Virus record (IMG/VR): IMGVR_UViG_3300008954_000003
Location: 1 to 64,000 of that record
Direction: 5' to 3' (one strand)
Origin: a virus
DNA: 64,000 nucleotides
Position 1 is the stretch's first letter. Every line of letters begins with the position of its first letter. The notes beneath the pieces were generated by a model that worked only from the letters and a program-made list of their open reading frames with translations, was not told the origin of the DNA and did no database searches. Positions 11,630 through 40,756 of the stretch are shown piece after piece. Both the position numbers and the translations under genes were made by a program.

Positions 11630-11658
11630 TTGACAACAAATTTCAGTAATGTTACTAT
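11630..11658 (+). promoter_or_regulatory. Sigma70-type promoter (likely early)
   Basis: TTGACA 11630-11635, 17-bp spacer ending in extended -10 TGn, TACTAT 11653-11658; lies in the largest intergenic gap I found. Confidence 0.8.
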
Positions 11659-15292: not shown

Positions 15293-16549
15293 ATGAAAAA
15301 GATAAAGATACTGACCCTATCGGATATGCCTTTGGCAACATCTGGTGTTGGCACACAGACAAGGTATATTATTGAAGGTCTTCTAAAGACGGGTAAGTTT
15401 AGCGTCGTTTCTCTTGGAGGGGCAATGAAGCACAAGGACTATACCCCAATTCGTTTTGAAGAATACGGGGAGGACTGGACAATCATCCCTGTTAATGGTT
15501 TCGGAGATCACAATATAATCAGGTCTGTGTTGAGAGCAGAAAAACCCGATATTCTTTGGTTTATGACAGATCCAAGATATTTTGAGTGGTTGTGGGAGAT
15601 TGAAGATGAAATTCGTCCATTATGTCCCATGGTCTATTACCACGTTTGGGACAACTTCCCAGCCCCTGATTTCAATAGAAAACATTACGACTCAACAGAT
15701 GTCATTGTGGCTATCTCAAAGCTAACTCATGACGTTGTTCGTGAAGTTTCGCCAAATGTTACCTGCATTTATCACCCTCACGCCGTGAATGGAGATGTCT
15801 TTTTCCCACAAAGTGAGCATAAGATATCCAACATAAGAAAGGGCAACTTTGGAGAAGATAGTGAGCGTTTTCTGTTCTTCTGGAACAATAGAAATGCTCG
15901 TCGAAAGATGAGTTCTTCTCTTATTTGGTGGTATAAAACGTTCCTTGATCGTGTCGGTCATGACAAGGCGTTGTTGCTTATGCACACCAACCCCAAAGAT
16001 GTTAACGGTCCAGATCTTGAAGCAGTTGTTAAGAAGCTTGGCCTGACAGAACATCAAATAAGATTTTCAGCAACGTCGGTTTCGCCTGAAAATTTGGCAG
16101 CCATGTACAACATGGCGGATTGCACAATCAATATTGCAGACGCTGAAGGGTTTGGACTTGCGACTCTTGAATCCCTTGCGTGTGCAACACCGATTATTGC
16201 CACGCTGACAGGTGGCTTACAAGAGCAAGTGAAGAAGGGCGGAGAACTGTATGGCATCGGCATTGAGCCGGCGTCAAAAGCCGTTGTTGGTTCACAGAAC
16301 GTTCCATACATTTATGAGGATAGGGTGAGCGAGGAATCTGTTGTCTCTGCAATGGAAGAAGTGTTCAACCTCTCAGAAGAGGATCGCAAAGCACTTGGTC
16401 GTAAGGGCCGCGAACATGTTGTAAAGAATTATAATTTCAATAAATTTATAACTGGTTGGGAAGAGATTTTAACCAATGTTTACAACGAATACGGTTCTTG
16501 GGGTACACGAAAAAATTACAACCCCTGGGCGTTTAAGGAAATAAAATGA
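15293..16549 (+). CDS. Glycosyltransferase, GT4-like
   Basis: NNRNARRK, AEGFGLATLESLACATPII. Confidence 0.9.
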   Translation: MKKIKILTLSDMPLATSGVGTQTRYIIEGLLKTGKFSVVSLGGAMKHKDYTPIRFEEYGEDWTIIPVNGFGDHNIIRSVLRAEKPDILWFMTDPRYFEWLWEIEDEIRPLCPMVYYHVWDNFPAPDFNRKHYDSTDVIVAISKLTHDVVREVSPNVTCIYHPHAVNGDVFFPQSEHKISNIRKGNFGEDSERFLFFWNNRNARRKMSSSLIWWYKTFLDRVGHDKALLLMHTNPKDVNGPDLEAVVKKLGLTEHQIRFSATSVSPENLAAMYNMADCTINIADAEGFGLATLESLACATPIIATLTGGLQEQVKKGGELYGIGIEPASKAVVGSQNVPYIYEDRVSEESVVSAMEEVFNLSEEDRKALGRKGREHVVKNYNFNKFITGWEEILTNVYNEYGSWGTRKNYNPWAFKEIK

Positions 16550-17802
16550 AAAAAAGTATCTTAGTCAAAGGTCCGGTTTTATCACAATCAGGATATGGTG
16601 AACAAGCTCGATTCGCCTTGAGAGCTTTGCGCCGCAAAGAAGATTTGCTTGATATATACATTGCCAATATTCCTTGGGGAAAGACAGGGTGGATTTTTAT
16701 CGATGATGATGAGCGAAAGTGGATGGATGAAAGAATCTCCGAGACGATCAAAGCTTTTCACGAGAAGAAGCAATTCGATATCACTTTACAGGTGACAATC
16801 CCAAATGAACTTGAGAAGCTTGCCCCTGTTAATATACTTTATACAGCCGGAATTGAAACCACAAAGGTTTCCCCCGAGTGGATTGAAAAAGTGAATCAGG
16901 TTGCGGATAAAGTTGTTGTGGTTTCAAGGCATTCGAAAGCCGTGTTTGAGAACTCATTCTATCAAAAAAAGAATGAATATGGACACATGATGGAACTCAA
17001 GCTTGAGAAGGCCGTTGAGTACTGCAATTATCCTGTGAGACAATTTGAAACTGTCGATCTTGACCTCGACCTCGAAACAGAGTTTAATTTCCTTGCAGTT
17101 CTACAATGGAGTTCGAGGAAGAACGTTGTTAACACAATTCAATGGTTCTTGGAAGAGTTTCATGACAATGAAGACGTTGGCCTCGTCATGAAGGCCAACA
17201 TCGCCAGAAACAGTGTCCGTGATAGGATGCAAATTGAGAGCAATTTAAAATCAATTGCGGCTGTTTATCCTGATAGAAAGTGCAAGCTGTATCTTGTTCA
17301 TGGGTTTATGTCCCATGATGAGGTTCATTCACTTTACGCACACCCAAAGATTAAGGCGCTTATCTCTCTTAGCCACGGCGAAGGGTACGGCTTGCCTGTG
17401 TTTGAGTCTGCCTACGTTGGGAAGCCTGTCGTTACAACTGATTGGAGTGGGCAGAAAGACTTTTTGTACGCTCCAAAAAAAGTTAAAGGCAAGATAAAGA
17501 ATCGACCACATTTTGCAAAGGTCGATTACGACATCAAACCAATTCAGAAAGAAGCTGTGTGGGATACAATTCTTGTCAAGGAATCAATGTGGGCTTACCC
17601 AAAAGAAAGAAGTGCGAAGGAAAAGATGAGAGAGGTTTACAAAGATTTTGGTCGCTTTGAAAGTCAAGCGAAGAAGCTAAAGAAGCATCTTGATGAGAAC
17701 TTCTCCGAAGAGAAAATCTATGATAACTTTTATCAACATTTAAAGGAGTTCATTGAGTATGAAGATGAGATCGATTCAATGTTCAATGAAATATCGTTAT
17801 GA
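16546..17802 (+). CDS. Glycosyltransferase, GT4-like
   Basis: SQSGYG, WSSRKN, SHGEGYGLPVFESAYVGKPVV. Confidence 0.9.
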   Translation: MKKSILVKGPVLSQSGYGEQARFALRALRRKEDLLDIYIANIPWGKTGWIFIDDDERKWMDERISETIKAFHEKKQFDITLQVTIPNELEKLAPVNILYTAGIETTKVSPEWIEKVNQVADKVVVVSRHSKAVFENSFYQKKNEYGHMMELKLEKAVEYCNYPVRQFETVDLDLDLETEFNFLAVLQWSSRKNVVNTIQWFLEEFHDNEDVGLVMKANIARNSVRDRMQIESNLKSIAAVYPDRKCKLYLVHGFMSHDEVHSLYAHPKIKALISLSHGEGYGLPVFESAYVGKPVVTTDWSGQKDFLYAPKKVKGKIKNRPHFAKVDYDIKPIQKEAVWDTILVKESMWAYPKERSAKEKMREVYKDFGRFESQAKKLKKHLDENFSEEKIYDNFYQHLKEFIEYEDEIDSMFNEISL

Positions 17803-19424
17803 TTATATGTGTGGCAGATTTCTTTTACCCACAATCAATCGGGGGAGCTGAACTTACTCTTGAGTCCTTTTTATCGAGTGCTCTCACCCCAATCAAAAGG
17901 GTTCAATCCCATTTATTAACAGAAGACTTCATCAACGAGCATAAAGATGAAACCTGGATCTTTGGTAATTTTACACTGATCGCAGACCCTCTTCTGATTA
18001 AAATTGCGAAAACACTTACAAATTATCATATTCTTGAATTTGATTATAAGTATTGTGAGTTAAGATGCTCCCACAAACACATAGCGGCAACAGGCTTTTG
18101 TGAGTGTGAAAAATCACCACATGGGAAGCTTGTTGCCGTTTTCTTTTACAAAGCAAAGGCCCTTTTTTGGATGTCTGAAGGGCAACGAGACGAATACCAT
18201 CGGCTATTTCCGATTTTAAAGAAAGCAAATAATGTTGTGATATCTTCATCCTTTTCGGATGAAACACTCCAATACATTAAAGGTTTGGACACTTCAAAAA
18301 AGAACAATAAATATCTTATTCTGGATTCTGGTTCGTGGATTAAAGGGGTTGACGATTGTGTAAAATACGCCAACGATAATGGCCTTGAATATGAAAAAGT
18401 CTTTCGCGTCTCACACAAAGAGATGCTTAACAAAATGGCTAGTTCAAAGGGGCTTATCTTTTTGCCAAAGGGGCTTGATACTTGTCCGAGAATAACAATT
18501 GAAGCGAAGCTTCTTGGGTGTGATGTTATAACGAATGAAAATGTACAGCATCGAGATGAGTGGTGGTTTAATGACGAACCCAAGGAGGGACTCTATAATC
18601 TCGATCCAATTTTGGAATATGTGTCAATTATGAGATGGAAATTTTTTGATAGATGCCTTGATGAAACGACAAAGATTGAATCAAAATCAAATATAAGATT
18701 TCATTTTGTTGTTCCTGCTTATAACGCAAGAAATTGGATAACCAAGACGGTCGATAGCATTTTAATGCAGCGTTATAAAAACCACACCGTCACTGTTATC
18801 GATGACGTATCGACAGACAATATGGAGGAGAAGCTAAAGCCGTATTTTCAGTATCGCAGGTTCAATTTTATAAAGAACACGGAAAAGAAGTACGCCCTTT
18901 TAAACATCATTACAGCCATAGAGAATCTTAAGCCGAAAGAGGAGGACGTTATTGTGGTTGTGGACGGAGATGATTGGCTACCAGGGTTTGGGGTTCTCGA
19001 TCACCTTGCAGACACATATGAAAACGAAGGGTGTGTTTTAACATACGGAAGTTACGTTGAACATCCAAGTGGCCGCAGAGGAGTCGAGCCTTCTGAATAC
19101 CCGGAAGAGGTTATCAAAAACAATCTGTTCAGGCGAGATATTTGGAGAGCATCACATTTAAGAACCTTTAAGTACAAACTTTGGAGAGAAATAAACAAGG
19201 AAGACTTAAAAGATTTAGACGGCCAGTATTATAAGATGTCTTATGATCAGGCGATGATGCTACCGATGCTTGAGATGGCGGGTGAGCTTTCACGGTTCAT
19301 CCCAGAAATCTTGCATGTTTATAATCGCGAGACTTCGATTAATGTTGACAAAGTGAGCGGCAAACAACAATATGAAACAATGTTGAGAATTCGCTCTAAA
19401 GAGCCGTATGAAAGGAGATTTTAA
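17799..19424 (+). CDS. Two-domain glycosyltransferase (GT4-like + GT2)
   Basis: GGAEL...DTCPRITIEAKLLGC, then VVPAYNA...IDDVSTD...VDGDDW. Confidence 0.88.
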   Translation: MIICVADFFYPQSIGGAELTLESFLSSALTPIKRVQSHLLTEDFINEHKDETWIFGNFTLIADPLLIKIAKTLTNYHILEFDYKYCELRCSHKHIAATGFCECEKSPHGKLVAVFFYKAKALFWMSEGQRDEYHRLFPILKKANNVVISSSFSDETLQYIKGLDTSKKNNKYLILDSGSWIKGVDDCVKYANDNGLEYEKVFRVSHKEMLNKMASSKGLIFLPKGLDTCPRITIEAKLLGCDVITNENVQHRDEWWFNDEPKEGLYNLDPILEYVSIMRWKFFDRCLDETTKIESKSNIRFHFVVPAYNARNWITKTVDSILMQRYKNHTVTVIDDVSTDNMEEKLKPYFQYRRFNFIKNTEKKYALLNIITAIENLKPKEEDVIVVVDGDDWLPGFGVLDHLADTYENEGCVLTYGSYVEHPSGRRGVEPSEYPEEVIKNNLFRRDIWRASHLRTFKYKLWREINKEDLKDLDGQYYKMSYDQAMMLPMLEMAGELSRFIPEILHVYNRETSINVDKVSGKQQYETMLRIRSKEPYERRF

Positions 19425-20317: not shown

Positions 20318-21225
20318 TATGTCCTGTCTACGCAAGAGAAGGATGGTTTTGCGATCGCTTTGCAAACGAGTGGATTGTTAACAACAAAAAGGGTTCAACA
20401 AAAAATCTTTTTGAAGCAGACGTTATATGGGTTGTCTCTCCTTGGCTGTGGAATCAAATCCCACCAATGCTTCTTCTCCAAAAGAAGGTTGTGACGACCA
20501 TCCACCATATCGTTCCTGAGAAATTTAACGAGAAAGAATTTGCTGCGAGAGATCACTACACAAACCTGTACCATGTGCCTTGTGAAAAAACAAAATCTTT
20601 TGTTTCGAAACACACAGATAAACCCGTTAAAGTGGTGGGTTATTGGATCAATTCTCATCTTTGGTTTGCAGAGGATAAAAAAGAACTAAGAAGGGTTTAT
20701 GCGATACCAGATGACAAGTACGTTGTTGGCTCTTTTCAAAGAGATACAGAAGGTCACGATTTAAAGAGTCCAAAGCTTGAAAAAGGTCCCGATTTGTTTT
20801 GTGATTATGTCGAGCGTTTGAATGAAGAAAAAGAGGTGCTCGTACTTTTAAATGGCTGGAGACGACAATATGTTCAAACACGATTAAAAAAAGCGGGCAT
20901 GAGATTTATGTATCGAGAACTCCCTCCTATTAATGTTGTTCGACACATGTATAATATGTGTGATCTATATGTTGTCGCAGCAAGAGTTGAGGGCGGCCCA
21001 CAAGCAGTGTTGGAAGCCCCAGCGATGAAAGTTCCAATTATTTCAACGGACGTTGGCATGGCATCAAGTGTTCTGCCGGAATCTTGCATTGTCGATGTTG
21101 AAAATGAAATTTATTATCCAACAGAAGAAGATGTCAATGAGGCTTATAAAAACGTTCAAAAATATGATATAAAAACTCACATGGATGAGTACACAAAAAT
21201 GTTCAAAGAGGTCTTGGAGGTATAA
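20311..21225 (+). CDS. Glycosyltransferase, GT4-like
   Basis: EKGPD, ARVEGGPQAVLEAPAMKVPIISTDVG. Confidence 0.85.
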   Translation: MLICPVYAREGWFCDRFANEWIVNNKKGSTKNLFEADVIWVVSPWLWNQIPPMLLLQKKVVTTIHHIVPEKFNEKEFAARDHYTNLYHVPCEKTKSFVSKHTDKPVKVVGYWINSHLWFAEDKKELRRVYAIPDDKYVVGSFQRDTEGHDLKSPKLEKGPDLFCDYVERLNEEKEVLVLLNGWRRQYVQTRLKKAGMRFMYRELPPINVVRHMYNMCDLYVVAARVEGGPQAVLEAPAMKVPIISTDVGMASSVLPESCIVDVENEIYYPTEEDVNEAYKNVQKYDIKTHMDEYTKMFKEVLEV

Positions 21226-21226
21226 G

Positions 21227-22297
21227 ATGAAGTTTTTAATAACAGGAGGAGCGGGGTTTGTTGGAAGCAATCTTGCATTTCACCTTTCAGAGGAAGGGCA
21301 CGAAGTTGTTTGCCTTGATAACCTTGTTCGGAGAGGTAGCGAGTTTAACATAAGCGAGTTGAAAGAAAAGGGGATAAAGATGATTCATGGAGATATCAGA
21401 AACCCTGAAGACTTGGTTCCTGTTGAACAATTTAAACCAGATGTGGTTCTTGAGTGTGCTGCCCAGCCGTCAGCTATTGACGGCTATGCAAATCCAATGT
21501 ATGACATAACAAACAATACCTATGGCCTTGTTAACGTTCTTGAATATTGCCGTAAGGTTGATGCAGGACTCATCTTTTGGAGCACGAACAAGGTGTACAG
21601 CGGGAAGCTTTGCAATTCCGTTCCGTTCTGGGAAGACAAAACGCGCTTGCGGTGGAAAGATCCAGGCAACTCAATAAGCGCAACAACAGTTCTTCCTGGT
21701 TGGTCGATGAACGGCTTCAACGAAGCTCTTGATGTTAATGGCGGTGATCATTCAATTTATGGGGTGTCGAAGTTGGCCTCGGATGTTATTTGCCAGGAAT
21801 GGTCAGACTCATTTGATATTCCGGTGATCATTAACAGGTTTAGTTGTCTTTATGGTCCGCGTCAATTTGGCAAGGTTGCTCAAGGTTGGATGGTTTGGTT
21901 TGTTATCGCCAAGTTACTTGGAGAACCTTTGGCATTTTACGGCTTCAACGGTAAGCAAGTTCGTGATTATTTACATGTACAGGACTTGGGCGACCTCATT
22001 TTGAAGCAATCAAAGGCTATAGACGGACATCGCGGTTCGTATTATAATGTTGGTGGTGGAATCGAGAATACAATTTCTTTAAGAGAACTTGACGACTTAT
22101 TGATTCAACTGATGAAGATTGAGTCGCCTATTGGCACAGGACCAGAAAGACGAGCTGATCAGAGAATTTACATTTCTGATATTGGGCGGGTTTGCAACGA
22201 GTTTGATTGGAAACCAAAGGTCCCCCTTGCATGGGGGCTTACCTCTTGTCTTGGTTGGGCAAAGAAAAATTTACACGATTTAAGAAAAATTTACTGA
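21227..22297 (+). CDS. NAD-dependent epimerase/dehydratase, CDP-paratose 2-epimerase (RfbE)-like
   Basis: ITGGAGFVGS, STNKVY, YGVSK, YGPRQFGKVAQGW, GKQVRD; ATG at 21227 with GGAGG. Confidence 0.85.
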   Translation: MKFLITGGAGFVGSNLAFHLSEEGHEVVCLDNLVRRGSEFNISELKEKGIKMIHGDIRNPEDLVPVEQFKPDVVLECAAQPSAIDGYANPMYDITNNTYGLVNVLEYCRKVDAGLIFWSTNKVYSGKLCNSVPFWEDKTRLRWKDPGNSISATTVLPGWSMNGFNEALDVNGGDHSIYGVSKLASDVICQEWSDSFDIPVIINRFSCLYGPRQFGKVAQGWMVWFVIAKLLGEPLAFYGFNGKQVRDYLHVQDLGDLILKQSKAIDGHRGSYYNVGGGIENTISLRELDDLLIQLMKIESPIGTGPERRADQRIYISDIGRVCNEFDWKPKVPLAWGLTSCLGWAKKNLHDLRKIY

Positions 22298-22303
22298 GGT
22301 GTT

Positions 22304-23932
22304 ATGAAAATTGCAGGATTATGGTCTGGGCACGACTGTTCGTTCTATGTGTCAAATAGAGGGAAGCCTATCGTTCACGCAGAGTATGAAAGATACATAA
22401 GAGAGAAAGAGCCGGCTGGTGATAGCGCGAAGTTCTTGATAGAGCAATATGCCGACTGGCAGTCTATTAAGCATTTTGTGTCAACCTATCCAACAAACAA
22501 GCTTCAAGAGCATGAAGAGTCTTATAAGAAGATTTGTGAAGTTGCCGATAAAAACGGCGGCTCTGTATCCTATATTGGACACCACCAAGCACATGCCGCA
22601 AACACTTTCTTTTCAAGCAACTTTGAAGAGGCATATATCCTGACTGTTGATGGCGGCGGTGTTGATCGTGGTGGCGTCACAGCATTGACGACGTGGAAGG
22701 GGATTGGGAACCGAATATACCCAATTCGTTCTTTCCCGATTCACCAAGTAAATATTGGCGGTGTTTGGACGAGAGCAACGAGATACATTTTTGAGTTGCA
22801 GTCTGGATGGCCGCATGGCCACCAAGCGGGTTCCGTTATGGCAATGGCTGCATTTGGAGATCCAAAGAGATTTTTCAACGATTTTTATACAATGCTGACC
22901 GTGGACCTACAACAAGCATCAGCAAAGCCGTCCACGCAACCGAGAGGCGCTCTTGTAAAGGGAAATGACCCACAACACCCTTATCTTCATAAGTATCAGG
23001 AGATCGCAAAGAGAGGCGAACAGGACAAGTTCGATCTTGCAGCGGGTTTGCAGGCGGCGACAGAATATTTGTTCAGACAGCTTCTTGCAGAATTTGCATA
23101 TCTTTCAGAGGGTGGAAGATATAATCTTTGTCTTGCGGGTGGTGTTGCCCTTAATTCCGTTATGGTCGGTAAGTTGCGGCAATGGTTTCCTGTAATTGAT
23201 GGAGTTTATATTACACCCACCCCTCACGATGGAGGGTTGACAATTGGTGCAGCACAATATATGTGGCATGAGGTGTTAGATCACCCAAGAATTATTTGGG
23301 AAGACAATTACACACCCTATCTTGGAGTTGAATACGACAAGAAGAGAATTTTCGAGGATTTGAAACAGTTTGATGACAAAGTATCTGTATCGAAAGTTAA
23401 TGATTCTGAAGTGGTTGATCTCTTGGATAAGCAGAAAATCGTTGCTGTCTTTGGAGGCGGATCTGAATCTGGACGCCGTGCTCTTGGAAATAGAAGCATT
23501 CTTGCAGATCCGAGAGATTCTGAGATGAAGGACAAAATCAATTCAAAGGTTAAGCATCGCCAGTGGTATCGACCATTTGCACCAAGTATCCTTCGTGACA
23601 CCGTGGGTGATTGGTTTGAGAATCCGTGCGAAAGCCCTTATATGAGTGACGTCCTTGAGTTCAAGGAAGAGGTCCGTGATAAAGTCCCAGCAGTTGTTCA
23701 TGTGAATGGCACAGCCAGACTTCAAACGGTCACGGAAAAAGATAACGGTTGGTATTACAATTTCTTAAAACTGTGGGAAGAAAAGTCAGGTGTTCCAATC
23801 ATTTTGAACACAAGCTTTAACGATCGTGAACCGATCTGCGAGACTCCTGAACATGCGATAAGATGCTTCCTCGGAACAGAGATCGATTATCTTTATTTTG
23901 TGGATTATGGAATCTTAATGGAGAGAAAATGA
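22304..23932 (+). CDS. O-carbamoyltransferase (NodU/CmcH family)
   Basis: GHD, HHQAHA, GGVALN, RALGNRSILADPR, RPFAP, NTSFN. Confidence 0.93.
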   Translation: MKIAGLWSGHDCSFYVSNRGKPIVHAEYERYIREKEPAGDSAKFLIEQYADWQSIKHFVSTYPTNKLQEHEESYKKICEVADKNGGSVSYIGHHQAHAANTFFSSNFEEAYILTVDGGGVDRGGVTALTTWKGIGNRIYPIRSFPIHQVNIGGVWTRATRYIFELQSGWPHGHQAGSVMAMAAFGDPKRFFNDFYTMLTVDLQQASAKPSTQPRGALVKGNDPQHPYLHKYQEIAKRGEQDKFDLAAGLQAATEYLFRQLLAEFAYLSEGGRYNLCLAGGVALNSVMVGKLRQWFPVIDGVYITPTPHDGGLTIGAAQYMWHEVLDHPRIIWEDNYTPYLGVEYDKKRIFEDLKQFDDKVSVSKVNDSEVVDLLDKQKIVAVFGGGSESGRRALGNRSILADPRDSEMKDKINSKVKHRQWYRPFAPSILRDTVGDWFENPCESPYMSDVLEFKEEVRDKVPAVVHVNGTARLQTVTEKDNGWYYNFLKLWEEKSGVPIILNTSFNDREPICETPEHAIRCFLGTEIDYLYFVDYGILMERK

Positions 23933-29857: not shown

Positions 29858-29908
29858 CCGAAAAAGAACAAGCGGAAGATGTTATTACGAAAGTAAAGTG
29901 GGGCTATA

Positions 29909-30619: not shown

Positions 30620-31226
30620 CGTTTCAATTATCGTAACAAACTTCAACTACGGTAAGTATATCGGAAGATGTCTACGGAGTTGTTTGTCACAGCGCAATGT
30701 TAACCACGAGGTTATCGTTGTTGATGATTGTTCGAGTGATGATTCCATAGAACAACTGCAACCATATATATCCCGCGTAAGACTCAAACAGAATAGGAAA
30801 AACCTTGGTGTAGGAGAAACAGCCAACAAAGGTTTTAAGGCGGCTTTGGGGCAATATGTTGTTCGTGTAGATGCAGATGATTTCATAAGTGCCGACATGT
30901 GTCACTTTATGAAAACATATCTTGAGGCCAATCACGATGCTTTTTGTGTTTCGTGCGATTATCTAATGGTTGATGATCATGAAGAAATATTAGAACGCAA
31001 ATATGCAGAGCAAGAAAACGTGTCTTGTGGAATTATGTACAGGAAAGATCTCCTCCTTCAATTAGGGGGTTATAAGAAAGGCATTCGTCATCGAGAAGAG
31101 GAAGAGTTAAGAAAGCGACTTGACAGTTATTATAAAATTCACCATCTTCGCATACCATTCTATCGTTATCGAATGCATAACAATAACAAAACAAAAACAA
31201 AAGAATACGAGGAGTTTGAAGTATGA
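30603..31226 (+). CDS. Glycosyltransferase, GT2
   Basis: VSIIVTNFNYG, VVDDCSSD, RVDADD. Confidence 0.9.
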   Translation: MENFPDVSIIVTNFNYGKYIGRCLRSCLSQRNVNHEVIVVDDCSSDDSIEQLQPYISRVRLKQNRKNLGVGETANKGFKAALGQYVVRVDADDFISADMCHFMKTYLEANHDAFCVSCDYLMVDDHEEILERKYAEQENVSCGIMYRKDLLLQLGGYKKGIRHREEEELRKRLDSYYKIHHLRIPFYRYRMHNNNKTKTKEYEEFEV

Positions 31227-33315: not shown

Positions 33316-34589
33316 TGAGGACGAAGGAGGTGAGATTGTGGGAGAATGCTTGTCGTTATATCCCAAGAGGGACGATGACACTTAGTAAATGCCCAGATCA
33401 GTTTGTTGAGGGGGTTTATCCTATATTTGCAGATAGAGCTTACGGCGCAACGATTGTTGGTATAGATGGCCGGGAATACCTTGATTTTATGTGCGGGCTT
33501 GGCCCAATTGTTCTTGGATACGGGGATCCTGTTGTGAACGAGGCGATTAAAAAGCAGTTGGAGAAGGGAACAATTTTTCCGTTACCAACACTATTGGAAA
33601 CCAAACTTGCGAAACTTATTGTTGAAACTGTTCCAAGTGCAGAAATGGTTCGGTTTGCAAAGAACGGAACAGATGTCTGCACAGCAGCAGTTCGTATCGC
33701 AAGGTCATACACTGGGAAAGAACATGTTTTGAAGTGCGGCTATCATGGGTGGTCTGATTGGCATGGTATTACAACAGGCCGTGAACACGGCATTCCGAAG
33801 AGCATGAAAAAGATAATCAGCGAGTTCAAATACAACGACTTGGACGACCTTGAGAGTCTTTTGAAAAAATATGAAGTTGCCTGCATCATCATGGAAGCTG
33901 AGGCTTTGGAAGCGCCGAAACCGGGTTATTTAGATGGTGTGCGCGAACTTGCAACAAAGTATGAGGCTTTGCTTATCTTTGATGAGGTCGTGACAGGATA
34001 TCGTTGGGGCCTTGGTGGCGCACAAGAAATGTTTGATGTCATTCCAGATTTGACAACACTTGGGAAATCGATTGCAAATGGACTTCCACTAAGTGTTATT
34101 TGTGGAAAGAAGAAATACATGGAAGAATTGAATCATGTTTTCTTTTCAATGACTTTTGGAGGGGAATGTCTTTCGATGGCGGCAGCAGTTGCAACGATTG
34201 AAGAATTGAAGAAAAAAGATTACGGAGCACTGTGGGAACTAAACCGAAAGTTTATACAAGGAATCAATAATGCCGCAACCAAACACAAACTCCTCATTAA
34301 TTTTGCAGGGACTGGCTTAAGACATAACCTTACTTTTGATAAATCGTATAAGGACCCCTCCGGGATGAGAGATTTGTTTTATCAGAGGATGATCGATTTT
34401 AACGTCTTTTTCTCAAACGTCCTATACCTTCAGTTCTCACATACAGAAAGTGATATTGAAGATGCAGTAGCTGCGGCAGAACAATCATTCGCCTTTGTGA
34501 AAGCGAACATGAATGATATCGATGGGGCTTTGAACGGAAAAAGAAGCGTTTCTGTTTTTCTAAAGAGAGACAAAGATGAGGAAGATTGA
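33312..34589 (+). CDS. Class III PLP aminotransferase (GSA-aminomutase-like)
   Basis: MVRFAKNGTD, YHGW, LIFDEVVTGYR, LGKSIANG, TFGGE. Confidence 0.92.
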   Translation: MMRTKEVRLWENACRYIPRGTMTLSKCPDQFVEGVYPIFADRAYGATIVGIDGREYLDFMCGLGPIVLGYGDPVVNEAIKKQLEKGTIFPLPTLLETKLAKLIVETVPSAEMVRFAKNGTDVCTAAVRIARSYTGKEHVLKCGYHGWSDWHGITTGREHGIPKSMKKIISEFKYNDLDDLESLLKKYEVACIIMEAEALEAPKPGYLDGVRELATKYEALLIFDEVVTGYRWGLGGAQEMFDVIPDLTTLGKSIANGLPLSVICGKKKYMEELNHVFFSMTFGGECLSMAAAVATIEELKKKDYGALWELNRKFIQGINNAATKHKLLINFAGTGLRHNLTFDKSYKDPSGMRDLFYQRMIDFNVFFSNVLYLQFSHTESDIEDAVAAAEQSFAFVKANMNDIDGALNGKRSVSVFLKRDKDEED

Positions 34590-35268
34590 AGATACTCTTT
34601 TCATAATTCAAGCAAGGGTCGATTCATCTCGCATTGAGCGGAAGATGATTCGACCTTTTGCTGATTCGTGCCTGTTTGAAATAGCAATAAAGAAAGTGCT
34701 CTCCTCTAAGATTCCAAAGGAGAATTTTTATGTGTCGATATTGGACAAAGAGCTTGAAGAGATTGCCCTCAAATACAAAGTGAATATGTTTATGAGGGGC
34801 AAGGGGACCTTGGAAGAACCAATAACACTTCAAAAGATATTTGAGTGGAGACTATTACCCTTTAAACATTATGTGAATTTGGGTGCCTGCAATCCGCTTG
34901 TGACCACAGAAACAATCGACAATTTTATTGAAGAGTTTCTTGCAATGCCTGAAGAGCGGACGGGAATGTTCGCGGTGGTTCCAAGAAGAAACTTCTTTTA
35001 TAACAGCCAAGGGAAGATGATAAATCTCTTTCATGGAAAAAAAGAGCACCTTGTTACCCTGGAAACAAAATTGGTTGGAACAACCTATGAAGCGGCACAT
35101 ACATTGTATGCCGGACAAATTGAAGATATTGAAAAAGGAATTTATATGGGTAATTTTGAAAATTACGAAGTCGCCTTTTATAGCATGAAAGAAGAAGAAG
35201 TCTTTGATATTGATTATCCATGGCAATTTGATTTGGCAGAACAGATGTATATTTTGAGGAACAAGTGA
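34576..35268 (+). CDS. Second cytidylyltransferase (NeuA/KdsB/SpsF-like)
   Basis: IIQARVDSSRIERKMIRPF, CNPL, DIDYPWQF. Confidence 0.85.
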   Translation: MRKIEDTLFIIQARVDSSRIERKMIRPFADSCLFEIAIKKVLSSKIPKENFYVSILDKELEEIALKYKVNMFMRGKGTLEEPITLQKIFEWRLLPFKHYVNLGACNPLVTTETIDNFIEEFLAMPEERTGMFAVVPRRNFFYNSQGKMINLFHGKKEHLVTLETKLVGTTYEAAHTLYAGQIEDIEKGIYMGNFENYEVAFYSMKEEEVFDIDYPWQFDLAEQMYILRNK

Positions 35269-36134
35269 AAGCAGTTATAATTGGGAATGGTTCAATCGGA
35301 AAGCGCCATAAGAGGAATTTGAAGGAGATGGGCATTGATGTTCGAACAGTTGATGTCGACGAGGCTCACAACCTTAATGCGATATTAAACAGTCGTGTTT
35401 GGGATTTTGGCCTTGTGTGCAGCCCGACGAACCTTCATCTTCAACACACATATGAACTTGTTAGGAGGGGCATTCCAACGTTTTGTGAAAAACCGTTTTA
35501 TCGAGAAAAAGATAAAGAGCTTTTGACGAAAATAAGGCGTTGTGTGAAACACAAAAACCTTCCAAATATGGTCGGTTGCAATTTGAGATTTCATGAAGAG
35601 ATAGCCCAGGTGGCAAACCATGGCTTTTTTAAGAAACCAGATGTTGCATATGCTCATTTTGGTTATGATTTGAAAAAATGGCATAATGACGGGAAACATC
35701 TTGAATTATATAGTGCAAACAAAAGTATGGGTGGCGGCATAACATTTGATGCCATACATGAGTTCGACTATCTTTATCATTGGTATGGAGAAATTGATAA
35801 GATCGATGTTGTTGCAAAGAAAGTGTCAGACGTAACAGTTGACACAGAGGATGTATGCGATGGGAAGATTTATTTCAGAAACGGACAGGTTGCTTATATC
35901 CATTTGGATTATTTAGCACCAGAGTATACAAGGTTTTTTATGTTTCCTTATTCACCAAGCTGTTATTACTACGACAAACCCATTAATATTGTACCAAGTA
36001 ATGAGATGTATGAATTTGAGATGAGGTACTTTGTAGGAAACCTGATATATGATGTAGAAGGGTGTATCAATTCTTTTGATGAAGCAATACACCTGATTGA
36101 CAAAATAAACGAAGGACTAAAATATGAATTCTAA
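35265..36134 (+). CDS. Gfo/Idh/MocA oxidoreductase
   Basis: IIGNGSIGKRH, FCEKP, VGCNLRF, GGG...DAIHEFD. Confidence 0.9.
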   Translation: MKAVIIGNGSIGKRHKRNLKEMGIDVRTVDVDEAHNLNAILNSRVWDFGLVCSPTNLHLQHTYELVRRGIPTFCEKPFYREKDKELLTKIRRCVKHKNLPNMVGCNLRFHEEIAQVANHGFFKKPDVAYAHFGYDLKKWHNDGKHLELYSANKSMGGGITFDAIHEFDYLYHWYGEIDKIDVVAKKVSDVTVDTEDVCDGKIYFRNGQVAYIHLDYLAPEYTRFFMFPYSPSCYYYDKPINIVPSNEMYEFEMRYFVGNLIYDVEGCINSFDEAIHLIDKINEGLKYEF

Positions 36135-37143
36135 AAAGACATATGTAATCGCGGAAGTTGGAGCCAACCACGATCGTGAGTTCGGCAAAGCTTGGAAGAT
36201 GATAGAGGTTGCTGCCGAAGCGGGAGCTAATGCCGTCAAGTTTCAGACATATTCAGCGGAAACTTTATATTCAAAAAACACCCCTGATTTTGCTGGGTAC
36301 AAAAACATCAATAAGCTTATCAAAAGAATTGAAATTCCAAGACATTGGCAAAAGGATTTAAAAGAAATTTGTGAGAGTTTTGACGTTGAGTTCTTGTCGA
36401 CACCGTTTGATGAAAGAGCGGTTGAAGAGCTTTATGAGCTTGGAATGAAAAGATTTAAAATTGGAAGTTTTGAGGCGAGTGACCCGAGATTCGTCAGGCT
36501 TGTTGCCTCAACAGGTTTACCATTGGTTATATCACTTGGCTGTGGGGCAAACCCAAGCGATATCATTGATTGGGTCTTGGAAGAAAATAAAGATCCCGAC
36601 ATAACATTCCTTCATTGTAATAGTGCATACCCGACGCCGCTTGAAGATATTAGGCTTGGAACCATTCGATATCAAACAGTTTATAGGAAACAATTTAGTA
36701 AAGAGATATGCCCAAAGCGCGGCCTCTCTGATCACACAAAGGGGATCTTGATCCCACCAGTTGCTGTTGCATTAGGGGCGTCAGTGATAGAAAAACATTT
36801 CACGATGGATAGAGAAGGTCGTGGACCTGACCATAGTTTTGCTATTGAACCTAATGAGTTAAAACAGATGATTGAAAATATTCGCAAAGTTGAAATAGCA
36901 ATGGGAGAAAGGCACGGATCAACATTAACGATAAGCGAACAAAAATTTGCTCATGCGAAAAGGTCAATCGTGGCGAAAAAGCGTATTAATCCCGGTGAGA
37001 TTTTTACGAAAGACAACATAACAACGATAAGACCGTGTTTTGAACATAATATTCCGGCTGAAGAGTTTTATAATATTCTTGGTAAAGAGTGCAAGGAGGA
37101 GTTGTTGGAGGGCGAGGCTTTAACAAAGTGGGGAAAAAAATAA
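36124..37143 (+). CDS. neuB: Nonulosonic acid synthase with SAF domain (NeuB/PseI/LegI family)
   Basis: IAEVGANH, AVKFQT, STPFD, LHCNSAYPT, GLSDHT, IEKHFT, DHSFA; SAF segment RSIVAKKRINPGE. Confidence 0.93.
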   Translation: MNSKKTYVIAEVGANHDREFGKAWKMIEVAAEAGANAVKFQTYSAETLYSKNTPDFAGYKNINKLIKRIEIPRHWQKDLKEICESFDVEFLSTPFDERAVEELYELGMKRFKIGSFEASDPRFVRLVASTGLPLVISLGCGANPSDIIDWVLEENKDPDITFLHCNSAYPTPLEDIRLGTIRYQTVYRKQFSKEICPKRGLSDHTKGILIPPVAVALGASVIEKHFTMDREGRGPDHSFAIEPNELKQMIENIRKVEIAMGERHGSTLTISEQKFAHAKRSIVAKKRINPGEIFTKDNITTIRPCFEHNIPAEEFYNILGKECKEELLEGEALTKWGKK

Positions 37144-37844
37144 TGGCATATATTCTTTGTAAAGATTTAAAATATATTGATGTTGAGAGACTGAGGCAAC
37201 GAAGTGCCACCCAGTGGTTTGTTATCCAGGAAGAAGATCTATTGAACCCGGATCCTATGTGGGCAAATGTACACACTGTCATCGAGCACTTTACTTCGTC
37301 CTCGGATAGGAAAATCTTTGTTCCATTTTACTCAAAGAAGATTCCAAAAGAAATTTATGAAAAGTACGAGGTGATAATTTTTCACATGACGGATGTTCCT
37401 TATGGCCGAGGAGGCTCACCTCTTCAAAATCTTATAAAAAGAGGCCATAGCTTGACAAAAATAGCAGCATTACAATGTACTGACAATTTAGACGCAGGAG
37501 ACGTTTACCTTAAAGAGATGTTATCCCTCGATGGGACAGCAGAAGAAATTTACAAGAGAGCAGGTCTTATTATTGAAGATATGATGTGGAGAATCGCAAA
37601 AATGAACATTGTTCCAAAGCCACAAATTGGAACTGTGACAAAATTTAAACGCCGAAAGCCGGCGCAAAGTGAGATTGTTACCGAATGTGGCTTGACAGAG
37701 CTTTATGATCACATCAGAATGTTAGATGCGCCTGATTATCCAAAAGCTTTTGTTGAATACAACAATTATCGTTTGGAATTTACAGGGGCACGCTTGGAAA
37801 ATGGCAAGTTAACAGCGAACGTTGAGTTCGTGGAGGATGAATAA
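37143..37844 (+). CDS. Sugar N-formyltransferase (Fmt-like)
   Basis: FHMTDVPYGRGGSPLQNLI, LDAGDV, IRMLDAPDYP. Confidence 0.88.
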   Translation: MAYILCKDLKYIDVERLRQRSATQWFVIQEEDLLNPDPMWANVHTVIEHFTSSSDRKIFVPFYSKKIPKEIYEKYEVIIFHMTDVPYGRGGSPLQNLIKRGHSLTKIAALQCTDNLDAGDVYLKEMLSLDGTAEEIYKRAGLIIEDMMWRIAKMNIVPKPQIGTVTKFKRRKPAQSEIVTECGLTELYDHIRMLDAPDYPKAFVEYNNYRLEFTGARLENGKLTANVEFVEDE

Positions 37845-38497
37845 TGAAAGTTTTAGTAATGGCAGCGCACCCCGACGATGAGCTTCTTGGCTGTGGAGGG
37901 ACCATGGCGAAACTTATTGAAGAGGGTCATGAAGTTCACATTCTTGTCTTTGCAGATGGTAGTGGGGCAAGGGATAATGAGTACGAAGGGTACACAAGAA
38001 TACCGGAACTCATGACATTGGCAAACTTTATGGGAGTCAAGAGCTGTAAGGCGGGCAACTTCCCAGATAACAAGATGGATTCTGTTCCATTGCTTAATGT
38101 CTGTAAGTTTATTGAAAAGAACGTGAACTTTGAGCCGGATATCATTTTTACACATCACCCGAGTTGCTTAAACATTGATCATGCGACAGTCACTAGGGCA
38201 ACTTTGACAGCTTTTAGGCCGCAACATGGAAGCGAAATGGCGATTTATGCTTATTTTGTACCGTCTTCAACGGATTATAACCCGCTTAACACTTTTCAAG
38301 GAAACGTATATTTTGATGTTGAGGATCATCAAAAGGTTAAACTCGACAATATTGAACAATATTATGGTGGAGAGTTGAGAGAGCACCCTCATTCAAGATC
38401 TCGTGAAAATTTAGAAAACCTTATGAGAGTTTGGGGAGCAGAAGTCGGCCTTGAATATGCTGAAAAGTTTCAATTGTTACGACAGGTGGTGAAATGA
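37844..38497 (+). CDS. PIG-L/LmbE family N-deacetylase
   Basis: AAHPDDELLGCGG, FTHH...NIDH, AEKF. Confidence 0.92.
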   Translation: MKVLVMAAHPDDELLGCGGTMAKLIEEGHEVHILVFADGSGARDNEYEGYTRIPELMTLANFMGVKSCKAGNFPDNKMDSVPLLNVCKFIEKNVNFEPDIIFTHHPSCLNIDHATVTRATLTAFRPQHGSEMAIYAYFVPSSTDYNPLNTFQGNVYFDVEDHQKVKLDNIEQYYGGELREHPHSRSRENLENLMRVWGAEVGLEYAEKFQLLRQVVK

Positions 38498-39015
38498 TAA
38501 AAGGCAAAAGGATAATATTGAGAGCGGTTGAAGAAGAGCACCTTAGTAAGTTGTTGTTGTGGCGAAATATGTATTTGCCTTATTTCCGTGAGTATAGGGT
38601 CATGGGAATCGAGGATCAGCGTCGTTGGTGGAGAGACAAAATTCTTAATGATGATTCATGGCAGTACTTTGTAGCGTGCGACCAAGCTACTGTTGTTGGG
38701 GCTGTTGGCTTAACATATATTCACCCGATTTATCAGACAGCAGAGTTTGCTATAACCGTTGGGGAACGATATCGTGGCAATGGTTATGGTTCTGATATGT
38801 TAAAGACAATAATAAAACACGGCTTTGAGAGTTTAAACCTTAACAGAATTTGGTGTGAGGTGTATGACAACAATGAAGCTATTGGTTTGTATAGAAAAAT
38901 CGGCTTCAAAGACGAAGGGACTCTGAGACAACATGTTTACAAAGATGGTAAATATCTTGATGCTCATGTTCTTGGAATGTTAAGAGAAGATTATAAGTGG
39001 AGAAACTGGAAGTGA
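38494..39015 (+). CDS. GNAT N-acetyltransferase (PseH/RimJ-like)
   Basis: YRGNGYG, NNEAIGLYRKIGFKDEG. Confidence 0.9.
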   Translation: MIKGKRIILRAVEEEHLSKLLLWRNMYLPYFREYRVMGIEDQRRWWRDKILNDDSWQYFVACDQATVVGAVGLTYIHPIYQTAEFAITVGERYRGNGYGSDMLKTIIKHGFESLNLNRIWCEVYDNNEAIGLYRKIGFKDEGTLRQHVYKDGKYLDAHVLGMLREDYKWRNWK

Positions 39016-39869
39016 AAATATTAGTAACAGGTGGGCTTGGATTTGTTGGTTCTAATCTTGTTGATGAACTTATGAGCAAAGAGGGTTGCGAGGTTTTTGT
39101 CATAGATAACCTTTGTTCGGATTCTTCTTCAAGAAACTATATGAGAAACGATGTGACTTATTGGATTGACGACGTTAGGAACTTAAACACATACAAATAC
39201 GATGGCCATAAATTTGATGTGATTTATCATCTTGCAGCGTTGGCGAGAATCCAACCAAGTTTTAAAGATCCGTTAACATACCTTTCAACAGATGTTCTTG
39301 GAACAGCGTGTGTTTGTGAATATGCGCGTCGGTGTTTTGCGAAGCTTGTTTATGCAGGATCATCATCAGCATATGCGGGGCCAATGTTAAACCCTTATGC
39401 TTTCGCAAAACACACCGGAGAACAAGTTTGTGAGTTATATCACCGCGTGTACGGCATGAGTACCGTTACAGCGCGGTTTTTTAATGTTTATGGTAAGAGG
39501 CAACCAACGAAAGGTGCCTATGCAACAGTTGTTGGAATTTTCGAAGGCTTAACATCAGCAGGAAAACCGCTTACAGTAACAGGTGATGGCGAGCAAAGAA
39601 GGGATTTCACACATATTTCAGATATTGTGGCAGGGTTTATATCGCTTGGAGAAGGGATTTGGCAAGCTCAAGTATTTGACCTTGGTTGTGGAAAAAACTA
39701 TTCTATAAACGAGCTTGCAGATATGTTCGGTGGAGAGAAAGTTTATATTCCAAAACGACCTGGCGAAGCAAGAGACACATTGGCAGATTTTTCTGAGATG
39801 TTCAAAGCAACAGGTTGGGAGTCCAAGGTCAAACTTGAGGGATACATTACAAATTGGTTGGTGAGGTAA
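38997..39869 (+). CDS. NAD-dependent sugar epimerase/dehydratase
   Basis: VTGGLGFVGS, AGSSS, YAFAK, RFFNVYG, GDGEQRRDF; start may be 39012. Confidence 0.9.
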   Translation: MEKLEVKILVTGGLGFVGSNLVDELMSKEGCEVFVIDNLCSDSSSRNYMRNDVTYWIDDVRNLNTYKYDGHKFDVIYHLAALARIQPSFKDPLTYLSTDVLGTACVCEYARRCFAKLVYAGSSSAYAGPMLNPYAFAKHTGEQVCELYHRVYGMSTVTARFFNVYGKRQPTKGAYATVVGIFEGLTSAGKPLTVTGDGEQRRDFTHISDIVAGFISLGEGIWQAQVFDLGCGKNYSINELADMFGGEKVYIPKRPGEARDTLADFSEMFKATGWESKVKLEGYITNWLVR

Positions 39870-39871
39870 AG

Positions 39872-40756
39872 ATGAGAAATGCAAAAGTAGGTGTTGTTGG
39901 TTTAGGTTTTGTAGGTTCGGCTCTGATTAAGGGCCTAAAGAAGAAAGAGTATTTTAATGCAATTCACACTTATGATAAATATAAAAATTCTTCGTGTGAG
40001 TCACTCAAAGAGCTTTGCAAACAAACAGAATTAATTTTCGTTTGTGTGCCAACGCCGATGAAGACGGCAGACGGTGGAGCAAACGTAAGTTATGTTCGGG
40101 ATACGATTCTTGAAATAGATTCATACAAAAAGAATCACATTGTTGTTATAAAATCAACAGTCCCGCCGGGAACGACAAAATTAATTCAAAAGTTGTGTAC
40201 CAACTGCTCGATAGTGTTCAGCCCAGAATTCTTAACAGAAGCCAATTTCCTTAACGACTTTCTAAATCAGGACCGTATTGTCCTTGGGGGAAGTTGGAGT
40301 GCAAAACATGCGGTGAAAGACTTTTTCCAAAAAGGTTGGCAAGAAGGTGCTTCTATTACTGGTAGGGTGGGAACAAAGTATCTGTTAACAGATTCAACAA
40401 CAGCAGAAATGGTTAAATATTTTGCTAATTGTTTTTTGGCGACAAAGGTAACGTTTGCCAACGAGATGCACAATCTTTGTGAAACAGTTGGTGTTGACTA
40501 TGGAGAGGTGGTTCATATTGCGACACACGATAGAAGAATAAACAACTCCCACTTTGAAGTTCCAGGCCCAGACGGAGGTTTTGGATTTTCAGGAAGTTGT
40601 TTTCCGAAAGATCTTTGTGCATTGTTGGAGCTATTAAATCTTCATGGTCTTACAGCACCAATGTTAAACGGGGTTTGGGAATCAAATTTGCTCTCAAGAC
40701 CAGAAAGAGATTGGGAAAAATTAAAAGGTCGGGCAATAACCGACGAGGAGAAATAA
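39872..40756 (+). CDS. UDP-glucose/GDP-mannose 6-dehydrogenase family, short form
   Basis: GLGFVG, CVPTP, KSTVPPGT, PEFL, AEMVKY, GSCFPKD; lacks the usual C-terminal domain. Confidence 0.9.
   Translation: MRNAKVGVVGLGFVGSALIKGLKKKEYFNAIHTYDKYKNSSCESLKELCKQTELIFVCVPTPMKTADGGANVSYVRDTILEIDSYKKNHIVVIKSTVPPGTTKLIQKLCTNCSIVFSPEFLTEANFLNDFLNQDRIVLGGSWSAKHAVKDFFQKGWQEGASITGRVGTKYLLTDSTTAEMVKYFANCFLATKVTFANEMHNLCETVGVDYGEVVHIATHDRRINNSHFEVPGPDGGFGFSGSCFPKDLCALLELLNLHGLTAPMLNGVWESNLLSRPERDWEKLKGRAITDEEK

Follow-up and report, generated by a model that had tools for sequence, protein, structure and literature searches.

The question raised by this locus is what a tailed phage does with 25 kb of glycan biosynthesis genes that have no recognisable export genes beside them. 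The locus lies in a 64,000-nucleotide stretch of viral DNA (IMG/VR record IMGVR_UViG_3300008954_000003), called the window below, which corresponds to bases 57144-121143, reverse strand, of one virus contig of 121,143 bp. Between window positions 15293 and 40756 (25,464 bp) the listing of open reading frames (ORFs) gave exactly 28 ORFs, all on the plus strand; 25 of the 27 junctions overlapped, and the sole gaps measured 6 nt (22297/22304) and 51 nt (29857/29909). A preliminary description made from the sequence alone had called this an island of 28 tightly coupled genes, which proved correct. We propose that the island may direct the cytoplasmic O-glycosylation of the phage's own virion proteins in a phage-autonomous manner, a reading whose probability we put at roughly 0.55. 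We infer the acceptor, the order of transfer, the identities of the sugars and the biological role from the gene content, a conserved genomic slot, the lack of export and initiation genes, the lack of known handles for DNA glycosylation and the enrichment of a serine-rich motif in virion proteins. Genes are named below by the position of their first base.

Phage origin of the island

Besides the island the contig carried genes for a terminase, a portal protein, a T4-type major capsid protein, a 1004-aa sheath, gp25/gp6-like baseplate wedge proteins, a primase, SbcCD, a DNA polymerase and a ClpP-like head protease, and it is a genuine genome fragment of a myovirus, a large uncultured marine phage of the T4-like kind. 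Almost all of its genes were on the same strand (in a greedy ORF pick the opposite strand held only four short ORFs of 89-178 aa), and its G+C content was uniform at 0.37-0.43. It had no terminal repeat, and its completeness according to CheckV was 42%. The closest relatives of the capsid protein were found in the uncultured 484-kb phage LR756508, Flavobacterium phage immuto, Microcystis phage Mel-JY01 and Rhodothermus phage RM378, a lineage that we take to be among the 'Far-T4' phages. A DNA-level search of the structural region against a phage collection gave no match. As the preliminary description had stated, the island is flanked by phage genes on both sides. Upstream lie genes for lytic transglycosylase-type virion proteins, the ClpP-like head protease and a PD-(D/E)XK nuclease; downstream are the gp25/gp6-like baseplate wedge genes, with terminase, portal, major capsid protein and sheath further along the contig.

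Since the contig is metagenomic and incomplete, it might be thought that bacterial polysaccharide genes had been mis-joined to phage DNA during assembly. However, the composition of the island matched that of the remaining contig: the tetranucleotide correlation was 0.953 (0.94-0.984 for equal-size segments elsewhere), the codon-usage correlation 0.962 and GC3 0.384 as against 0.390. The island genes are co-directional and overlap one another, and synteny with complete phage genomes holds at both borders. A close bacterial homologue was found for none of them; in 185,579 species genomes the bacterial NeuB proteins most similar to those of the island showed only 31-39% identity and were scattered over many phyla. 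With phage genes around the island, matching composition and such distant bacterial NeuB homologues, a chimera is very unlikely, and the join with bacterial DNA that the preliminary description had warned of has left no sign. The low identity and taxonomic scatter of the NeuB matches also meant that they held no host signal, and NeuB was rejected as a means of inferring the host.

A conserved slot with swappable cargo

The start and the borders of the island are formed by the following genes, where GT1 and GT2 are names of single glycosyltransferase (GT) genes, as distinct from the GT2 and GT4 enzyme families:

14337..15116, plus strand: PD-(D/E)XK nuclease, conserved left border (Pfam PF12705; syntenic in immuto, Mel-JY01, LR756508 and 79/80 loci)
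15293..16549, plus strand: GT1, GT4-family GT-B glycosyltransferase with intact EX7E motif (E285/E293; Pfam PF00534 and PF20706, GT4 matches in the PDB)
16546..17802, plus strand: GT2, second GT4-like glycosyltransferase with intact EX7E motif (E279/E287; Pfam), conserved partner of GT1
17799..19424, plus strand: two-domain glycosyltransferase with a GT-B/GT4-like N-domain and a GT-A/GT2 C-domain (AF2 model, fold comparison)
40924..42467, plus strand: conserved right border, consisting of a Zn-ribbon ORF (Pfam Zn_ribbon_8), 41190, 41449 (237 aa) and 42141

IMG/VR contained at least 598 loci encoding relatives of GT1, and all gene counts given here refer to the best 80 of these. GT1 was present in 80/80, GT2 (16546) in 79/80, the nuclease in 79/80 and the 17799 N-domain in most. 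Each of the remaining island genes was found in just 1-19 loci (19424 in 12 and 20311 in 5). The slot thus has a conserved head of two GT4 enzymes (GT1 and GT2) and a mini-GT4 domain (the N-domain of 17799) behind the nuclease. On the right, 41449 and the baseplate genes served as markers; homologues of the right border close the island in five complete relatives (G001-G005; CheckV 100%, 185-204 kb) and in four IMG/VR loci. The 654-aa ORF 42474, just right of the island, had no match in the complete relatives.

Cultured phages that infect Flavobacterium, Microcystis and Rhodothermus, hosts from three phyla, have the GT pair and the slot in common. Both immuto and Mel-JY01 carry adjacent GT1 and GT2 homologues close behind the same nuclease, with one small gene between nuclease and pair in each. 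The cassettes that follow the pair are smaller than that of the window and differ from it: the Mel-JY01 cassette measures about 6 kb and that of immuto about 11 kb, the latter including WecE-type aminotransferases and a 'pilin glycosylation' acetyltransferase. GT1 is likewise present in LR756508 and RM378, and in LR756508 a NeuB gene is located about 17 kb downstream of it. Between GT1 and the Zn-ribbon/41449 homologues the slot spans 13.5-21.5 kb in the five complete genomes. The cargo differs in each of them, with NeuB in two and a carbamoyltransferase in two. The slots of the four IMG/VR loci measure 6-10 kb. Cargo length therefore ranges from about 6 to 25.5 kb, and the island of the window is the largest version seen of a common swappable cassette in a fixed slot of the lineage. 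The novelty lies above all in this organisation, a conserved anchor with swappable cargo across a large lineage, and in addition in its scale and in the phage's own supply of nonulosonic acids.

The EX7E motif was kept in GT1 (83 homologues) and in GT2 (74 homologues), so that both are probably active enzymes. The possibility that GT2 is a dead partner of the GtfB kind was rejected for the same reason. PDB matches of GT1 include chlorovirus B736L (E 4e-6). The 541-aa product of 17799 was modelled with AlphaFold (pLDDT 86): residues 1-292 form a compact GT-B/GT4-like domain and residues 295-540 a GT-A domain. VIA-align matched the N-domain to 6kih, a sucrose-phosphate synthase (Z 20.3; residues 1-294), to BshA and PglA (19.2/18.9; residues 1-292) and to chlorovirus B736L (3oy2; 15.8), and there was a weak profile match to PglA. 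The C-domain (about 295-540) gave Z 21.8 with K4CP, about 19-20 with SpsA and TarS and 18.7 with TarP; Foldseek with the whole model matched the GT-A half alone. In relatives (L038, L042 and L080 among them) the compact GT4-like domain occurs in three architectures: stand-alone (about 280 aa), before a GT-A domain (about 540 aa) and behind a GT2 homologue (about 695 aa). Because of these fusions the domain is probably tied in function to the conserved GT pair.

Absence of export and initiation functions

The arrangement recalls bacterial O-antigen and capsule loci in that sugar-nucleotide genes and several GTs are combined in an operon whose flanks are conserved and whose middle varies. The export side of such loci is missing. 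All 28 island products are predicted to be soluble, and a hydropathy scan of every plus-strand ORF of at least 40 aa detected no polytopic membrane protein on the 121-kb contig, within or outside the island. The same scan found none in the islands of the five relatives. It flagged ORFs with at least four transmembrane segments in 10/16 bacterial NeuB neighbourhoods, which indicates that the method works.

Initiating phosphoglycosyl transferases (Bac_transf PF02397 and WecA-type PF00953) were absent from the 28 ORFs and from the five complete relatives. The relatives were searched for export genes since the contig itself is incomplete, and they contained no Wzx (PF01943), Wzy_C (PF04932) or ABC-2 permease (PF01061); each export or initiation family was found in 9 to 14 of 14 control genomes. 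For the phage of the window the lack of export genes rests partly on these relatives, as its contig is only about 42% complete. The preliminary description had seen no Wzx, Wzy, Wzm/Wzt, initiating transferase or polytopic protein in the island, which the Pfam and hydropathy searches bore out. Nor did membrane or export components, whose presence elsewhere it had regarded as pointing to the host surface, turn up as polytopic proteins on the contig or as export families in the five complete relatives.

Candidate acceptors among the virion proteins

If the product remains in the cytoplasm, virion proteins are the most plausible acceptors. The short motif [ST][GAS]S was counted in all proteins of the contig and compared with shuffled sequences. 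It was 4-6-fold enriched (z 3.6-8.9) in eight proteins, all of them tail, neck or sheath proteins, and there was no enrichment in the island enzymes or in the giant baseplate proteins. The strongest candidates were:

52964..62563, plus strand: tail proteins 52964, 54436 and 57890 (490, 1161 and 1557 aa), candidate acceptors (shuffle test z 7.2-8.9)

These three contained 18, 21 and 19 sites respectively, as against 3.2-4.5 expected, and 54436 has a ConA-like lectin domain. Orthologues of 52964 in the five complete relatives showed the same excess (z 5.7-7.3). The other enriched proteins were 69489, 70577, 90376, 95538 and the sheath, whose nine sites all fall within residues 143-626, outside the C-terminal core that can be aligned with T4-type sheaths. 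The enrichment supports O-glycosylation of virion proteins, short of proof. No flagellin gene was recognised among the ORFs searched, which were part of the contig's ORFs.

Only the last 280 residues or so of the 1004-aa tail sheath (oriented contig 98171-101185) align with T4-type sheaths, and a part of about 700 aa, which holds the nine motif sites, is specific to the lineage. Alignment of the 579-aa major capsid protein (oriented contig 92213-93952) with T4-type gp23 falls into two pieces, separated by a stretch that does not align. To judge from this two-piece alignment, its four [ST][GAS]S sites (162-276) apparently lie in the middle part.

Nonulosonic acid cassettes

Two gene blocks within the cargo resemble pathways for pseudaminic (Pse) or legionaminic (Leg) acid. 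Cassette 1 (block 27714..30619) comprises:

27714, plus strand: TagF-like GT-B protein, candidate CMP-sugar transferase (Atlas features and structure)
28594, plus strand: CMP-cytidylyltransferase, CTP_transf_3 (Pfam; NCBIfam PseF-like, 121 bits)
29228, plus strand: FkbM methyltransferase (Pfam, NCBIfam)
29909, plus strand: short NeuB-family synthase without SAF domain (Pfam, NCBIfam)

Cassette 2 (block 31223..39015) comprises:

31223, plus strand: TagF-like GT-B protein, candidate transferase or PseG-like hydrolase (Atlas)
32329, plus strand: PseB-like 4,6-dehydratase of the SDR type (Polysacc_synt_2, 2.8e-78; TIGR03589 PseB, 258 bits with an equivalog cut-off of 408 bits)
33312, plus strand: class-III HemL-like aminotransferase (Pfam, NCBIfam)
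34576, plus strand: CMP-cytidylyltransferase, CTP_transf_3 (Pfam)
35265, plus strand: GFO/IDH/MocA oxidoreductase (Pfam)
36124, plus strand: NeuB-family synthase with SAF domain (NeuB 286 bits and PseI 265 bits, both below equivalog cut-offs)
37089, plus strand: formyltransferase (Pfam)
37844, plus strand: PIG-L de-N-acetylase (Pfam)
38494, plus strand: PseH-like GNAT (TIGR03585 PseH, 76 bits, cut-off 93)

Of the enzymes of the bacterial pathways, the NeuB-family synthase and the CMP-cytidylyltransferase are each present twice in the island, and a PseB-like dehydratase and a GNAT are candidates for two further steps. The island differs from the bacterial pathways in having a class-III HemL-like aminotransferase in the place of the DegT/PseC enzyme, in its additional oxidoreductase, formyltransferase and PIG-L enzymes, and in identities of only 31-41% to the bacterial enzymes. 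A DegT/PseC-type aminotransferase was not found in the island, 33312 being its sole aminotransferase. Every NCBIfam score of the cassette enzymes falls short of the equivalog cut-off, and with this and the type of the aminotransferase, Pse, Leg or another stereochemistry would fit.

PseG and NeuC models found no match in the island, and 31223 has a TagF-like GT-B fold. Neither 27714 nor 31223 belongs to a Pfam family; both were assigned to TagF-like GT-B folds solely from Atlas features and models, and their nearest Atlas clusters are viral. PDB sequence searches with 31223, 27714 and the 17799 N-domain gave nothing useful, and the fold of the latter was assigned from the AlphaFold model and the PglA profile. 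Judging from fold and position, 27714 and 31223 are candidates for the ulosonic acid transferases.

The spore crust is a protein shell that is glycosylated inside the mother cell. The sps genes of Bacillus subtilis provide a legionaminic acid pathway for this crust (PMC7439481), and a Bacillus sps-type locus is among the bacterial NeuB loci nearest to those of the island. NeuB is very rare in deposited phage genomes: 3/50,697 records matched, one of them a bacterial contig. A literature search found no paper on nonulosonic acids in phage virions.

A possible pathway

The enzymes of the island could act in the following order. As exposed proteins of the tail, neck and sheath are folded and assembled in the infected cell, GT1, GT2 and the N-domain of 17799 would place a conserved core saccharide on their Ser/Thr residues. 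The glycan would then be lengthened by the variable transferases (three GT4 and three GT2 domains). The TagF-like GT-B enzymes 27714 and 31223 are the leading candidates for the addition of two CMP-activated ulosonic acids, which the two NeuB/cytidylyltransferase cassettes would supply. Carbamoyl, methyl, formyl and acetyl enzymes would tailor the sugars. Flippase, polymerase and lipid-linked initiation would be dispensable because the acceptor would not leave the cytoplasm before lysis.

Close relatives differ in their cargo but share the slot and the core transferases, and for this reason the product would behave like a virion 'serotype' under diversifying selection. We suggest tentatively, and as slightly less than an even bet, that this marine 'Far-T4'/Immutovirus-like lineage wears a serotype-like glycocalyx, in which a GT4 triad builds a core on a Ser-rich sequon and the outer glycan, specific to the strain, is determined by swappable cargo of up to 25 kb. 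In the version encoded in the window this outer glycan would include two phage-made sialic-acid-like sugars. If this is true, tailed phages would resemble bacteria in having surface 'serotypes' shaped by diversifying selection, and their particles would have a chemical surface identity that cannot be predicted from the proteins alone. The consequences would concern adsorption, host range, the stickiness and decay of particles in seawater, grazing and the way in which host surface defences recognise the phage. Autonomous glycosylation, which has until now marked out the giant viruses of eukaryotes, would be shared by tailed phages, and the GT triad with its candidate sequon would form a portable system for glyco-engineering phage particles. 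The cultured relatives immuto and Mel-JY01 make the idea directly testable.

Several points weigh against virion glycosylation. A glycan, glycoprotein or acceptor has been observed in no member of the lineage. The candidate late-promoter motif CTA[ATG]TTA, which precedes many structural genes, is absent between 11617 and 42041 and so gives no sign that the island is co-expressed with virion genes. The motif [ST][GAS]S was picked once the sequences had been seen, and its enrichment might simply stem from the structure of fibre-like folds. Maf, GT-C and other recognised protein-glycosylating families were not detected, Maf/DUF115 (PF01973) giving no match in the 28 ORFs at E<=0.01. With about 42% of the genome on the contig, further genes of this phage may have been missed. 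Finally, peripheral GT4 and GT2 enzymes normally use lipid-linked acceptors and do so without transmembrane segments, so the solubility of the island enzymes does not separate the possible acceptors.

A first alternative is remodelling of the host envelope. The glycan could be built on an undecaprenyl-phosphate-linked primer that a host phosphoglycosyl transferase has made, or CMP-nonulosonic acids could be fed to host transferases. Export of the product by the host's Wzx/Wzy/ligase or ABC system would then alter the surface of the infected cell, for example so as to block superinfection or to save progeny from loss on cell debris. The GT4/GT2 enzymes and sugar-nucleotide pathways of the island do belong to the classes found in O-antigen and capsule loci, the absence of the putative late motif would suit such a role, and it is the usual reading of the 'LPS genes' of large cyanomyoviruses, including the 22 genes (13 GTs) of S-SCSM2R, which were interpreted by the authors as serving cell-surface modification (PMC12801897). 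However, initiating transferase, flippase, polymerase, ligase and ABC permease are all absent from the five complete relatives, no island protein is polytopic, and the genes are only distantly related to bacterial homologues. Moreover, one GT triad in phages of Bacteroidota, Cyanobacteria and Rhodothermus would have to dock to very different host export systems. With the same slot and GT pair present in at least 598 loci and in phages whose hosts span three phyla, the system does not track one host envelope type, and its conservation fits better with a phage-intrinsic target than with a host-specific export route. We consider envelope remodelling unlikely. A different soluble acceptor, be it a non-virion phage or host protein (as in host takeover), a small molecule, a lipid or a free or intracellular polysaccharide, would also agree with the soluble enzymes, and GT1 scores above the Pfam threshold for PF20706 ('GT4 in conflict systems'). 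Nevertheless, hypervariability of the outer glycan above a conserved core would be expected of an exposed surface structure and not of an intracellular target, and the motif enrichment points to virion proteins, which makes such an acceptor distinctly unlikely.

DNA hypermodification, in which the transferases would glycosylate a hydroxylated or hydroxymethylated base and so evade restriction, had been named as the alternative in the preliminary description. Phage GTs related to those of lipopolysaccharide and teichoic acid synthesis put mono- to tri-saccharides on 5hmC (bioRxiv 10.1101/2023.12.21.572611), and poly-arabinose on 5-hydroxycytosine (PMC13326640), and DNA-glycosylation clusters can adjoin structural genes. 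The known handles are thymidylate synthase (TS)-family hydroxylases (PMC13326640) or a C5-methyltransferase together with TET (bioRxiv 10.1101/2023.12.21.572611). Neither the thymidylate synthase family (PF00303) nor C5 cytosine methyltransferases (PF00145) nor TGT/DpdA (PF01702) were found on this contig or in four complete marine relatives, with positive controls in each case; Tet_JBP (PF12851) gave no match, but its control was equally silent. The DNA of immuto, which carries a homologous GT1-GT2 pair, contained only dA, dC, dT and fdPreQ1 in HPLC-UV-MS, dG being fully replaced by fdPreQ1 (PMC10516641), and thus no glyco-nucleoside. Eleven GT domains and two ulosonic acid pathways also far exceed known DNA glycans. 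We regard modification of DNA as very improbable, and the alternative is weaker than when it was first raised. The favoured part of the preliminary description, assembly in the cytoplasm on a soluble acceptor and most plausibly on virion protein, has gained indirect support from the slot, the lack of export genes and the motif. In immuto, genes for QueF and a formyltransferase lie about 13 kb upstream of the GT pair.

Comparison with known systems

The glycosylation of virion proteins by phage enzymes has a precedent in mycobacteriophages, where phage-encoded GTs modify capsid and tail-tube proteins (Freeman et al. 2023, as summarised in PMC12619734). As far as that summary goes, the two systems share soluble phage-encoded GTs and a lack of export genes, and the mycobacteriophage glycans are likewise made in the infected cytoplasm, on structural proteins. 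The mycobacteriophage type differs, in the same account, in having few GTs, drawing on host sugar pools and modifying the C-terminal tails of capsid and tail-tube subunits. The island, which is likened to it by features and not by sequence, has 11 GT domains, its own sugar-nucleotide and nonulosonic acid pathways, tailoring enzymes and candidate sites across tail, neck and sheath.

Giant viruses glycosylate their virion proteins autonomously in the cytoplasm, as in the capsid glycans of chloroviruses and the fibril glycans of Mimivirus. Like the island they encode sugar-nucleotide synthesis, multi-domain GTs and methyltransferases in clade-specific gene sets; they differ in being eukaryotic viruses of another realm. 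We know of no giant virus with a swappable cassette in a fixed slot anchored by a conserved GT triad. Marine cyanomyoviruses (P-SSM2, S-SCSM1, S-SCSM2R) are marine T4-like phages that also encode many GTs and NDP-sugar epimerases, and with its 22 genes and 13 GTs S-SCSM2R is of comparable scale (PMC12801897). Nevertheless, they belong to another lineage, their genes are dispersed over the genome, and they have Kdo instead of NeuB-type pathways; they were thought to modify the host surface or DNA, and a conserved anchor or candidate sequon was not described (PMC12801897).

The fold matches of 17799 include 4pqg and 3rhz, structures from the systems that glycosylate streptococcal serine-rich-repeat (SRR) adhesins. 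Like the pathway proposed for the island, these systems (GtfA/GtfB, Gtf3, dGT1) carry out stepwise O-glycosylation of Ser in S-x-S type sequences in the cytoplasm; a GT-B pair starts the chain and further GTs, including a two-domain enzyme, extend it. The second protein of GtfA/B is non-catalytic, whereas both phage GTs keep the EX7E motif. SRR substrates, unlike the phage candidates, are long low-complexity repeats exported by SecA2/Y2.

Remaining cargo, expression and neighbouring genes

A total of 11 GT-fold domains in 10 ORFs was assigned with Pfam, NCBIfam, Atlas and fold comparison. This agrees with the eight clear GT genes (one with two domains) and two further GT-B-like ORFs of the preliminary description, the latter being the TagF-like 27714 and 31223. 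The sugar-nucleotide enzymes and the carbamoyl, methyl, formyl, acetyl and deacetyl tailoring functions that it listed were likewise all recovered with Pfam and NCBIfam. The cargo genes outside the two cassettes, and a small ORF outside the 28, are:

15114..15289, plus strand: small CxxC...CxxC ORF of 58 codons with two CxxC pairs (read directly; outside the 28)
19424-20317, plus strand: short GT4-like glycosyltransferase, variable cargo (Pfam PF00534/PF13692)
20311-21225, plus strand: short GT4-like glycosyltransferase, variable cargo (Pfam PF00534/PF13692)
21185..22297, plus strand: SDR NDP-sugar 4,6-dehydratase/epimerase (Pfam PF01370, PF16363; NCBIfam dTDP-glucose dehydratase-like below cut-off)
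22304..23932, plus strand: NodU/CmcH-type O-carbamoyltransferase (Pfam PF16861, 1.8e-60, and PF02543)
23863 (block 23863..26415), plus strand: GT2-family glycosyltransferase (Pfam)
24894 (block 23863..26415), plus strand: SAM methyltransferase (Pfam)
25504 (block 23863..26415), plus strand: GT4-like glycosyltransferase (Pfam)
26400 (block 26400..27717), plus strand: DUF2334 protein (Pfam PF10096)
27115 (block 26400..27717), plus strand: 200-aa protein, no family match (Pfam, NCBIfam), the sole island ORF left without an assignment
30603..31226, plus strand: GT2-family glycosyltransferase (Pfam PF00535, 1.4e-27)
38997 (3' block 38997..40756), plus strand: NDP-sugar epimerase, semi-conserved in relatives (Pfam, NCBIfam)
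39854-40756, plus strand: short NDP-sugar dehydrogenase of 300 aa, semi-conserved in relatives (Pfam, NCBIfam)

DUF2334 is presumably a member of the polysaccharide-deacetylase-like superfamily. Homologues of the carbamoyltransferase 22304 occur in the islands of the complete relatives G002 and G005. The islands of G002-G004 end, on the 3' side, with homologues of 38997 and 39854, showing 31-50% and 47-49% identity respectively. The 39854 product lacks the usual C-terminal UDP-binding domain; since the same length and 47-49% identity were found in two complete relatives, it is probably a functional short form rather than a pseudogene.

ORF 15114..15289 fills the apparent gap between the nuclease and GT1, so that there is no free promoter region upstream of the island. 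No clear promoter, terminator or substantial non-coding gap was found from the 11617 region to 42.4 kb, several of the gaps listed by the ORF scan holding small ORFs where they were read, and the island may be part of a transcription unit of about 30 kb. A copy of the late motif, CTAGTTA at 11617, adjoins the best match to a sigma-70 promoter in this region (TTGACA-17-TACTAT with TG, 11630-11658). An attempt to derive the timing of expression from promoters was abandoned, as sigma-70 and terminator consensus scans were at background level and the putative late motif does not occur in the island.

A literature search found no paper on Mel-JY01 or on the glycosyltransferases of RM378. A 229-aa ORF (window 13639-14328) that immediately precedes the nuclease and the GT pair was kept in 78/80 relatives; it showed a weak match to anthrax-lethal-factor-like metalloproteases (E 0.004). 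Further upstream, a 771-aa protein (window 7412-9727) gave a cytidylyltransferase-like PHROG match over residues 423-619 (E 1e-6) and may be another nucleotide-sugar enzyme outside the island.

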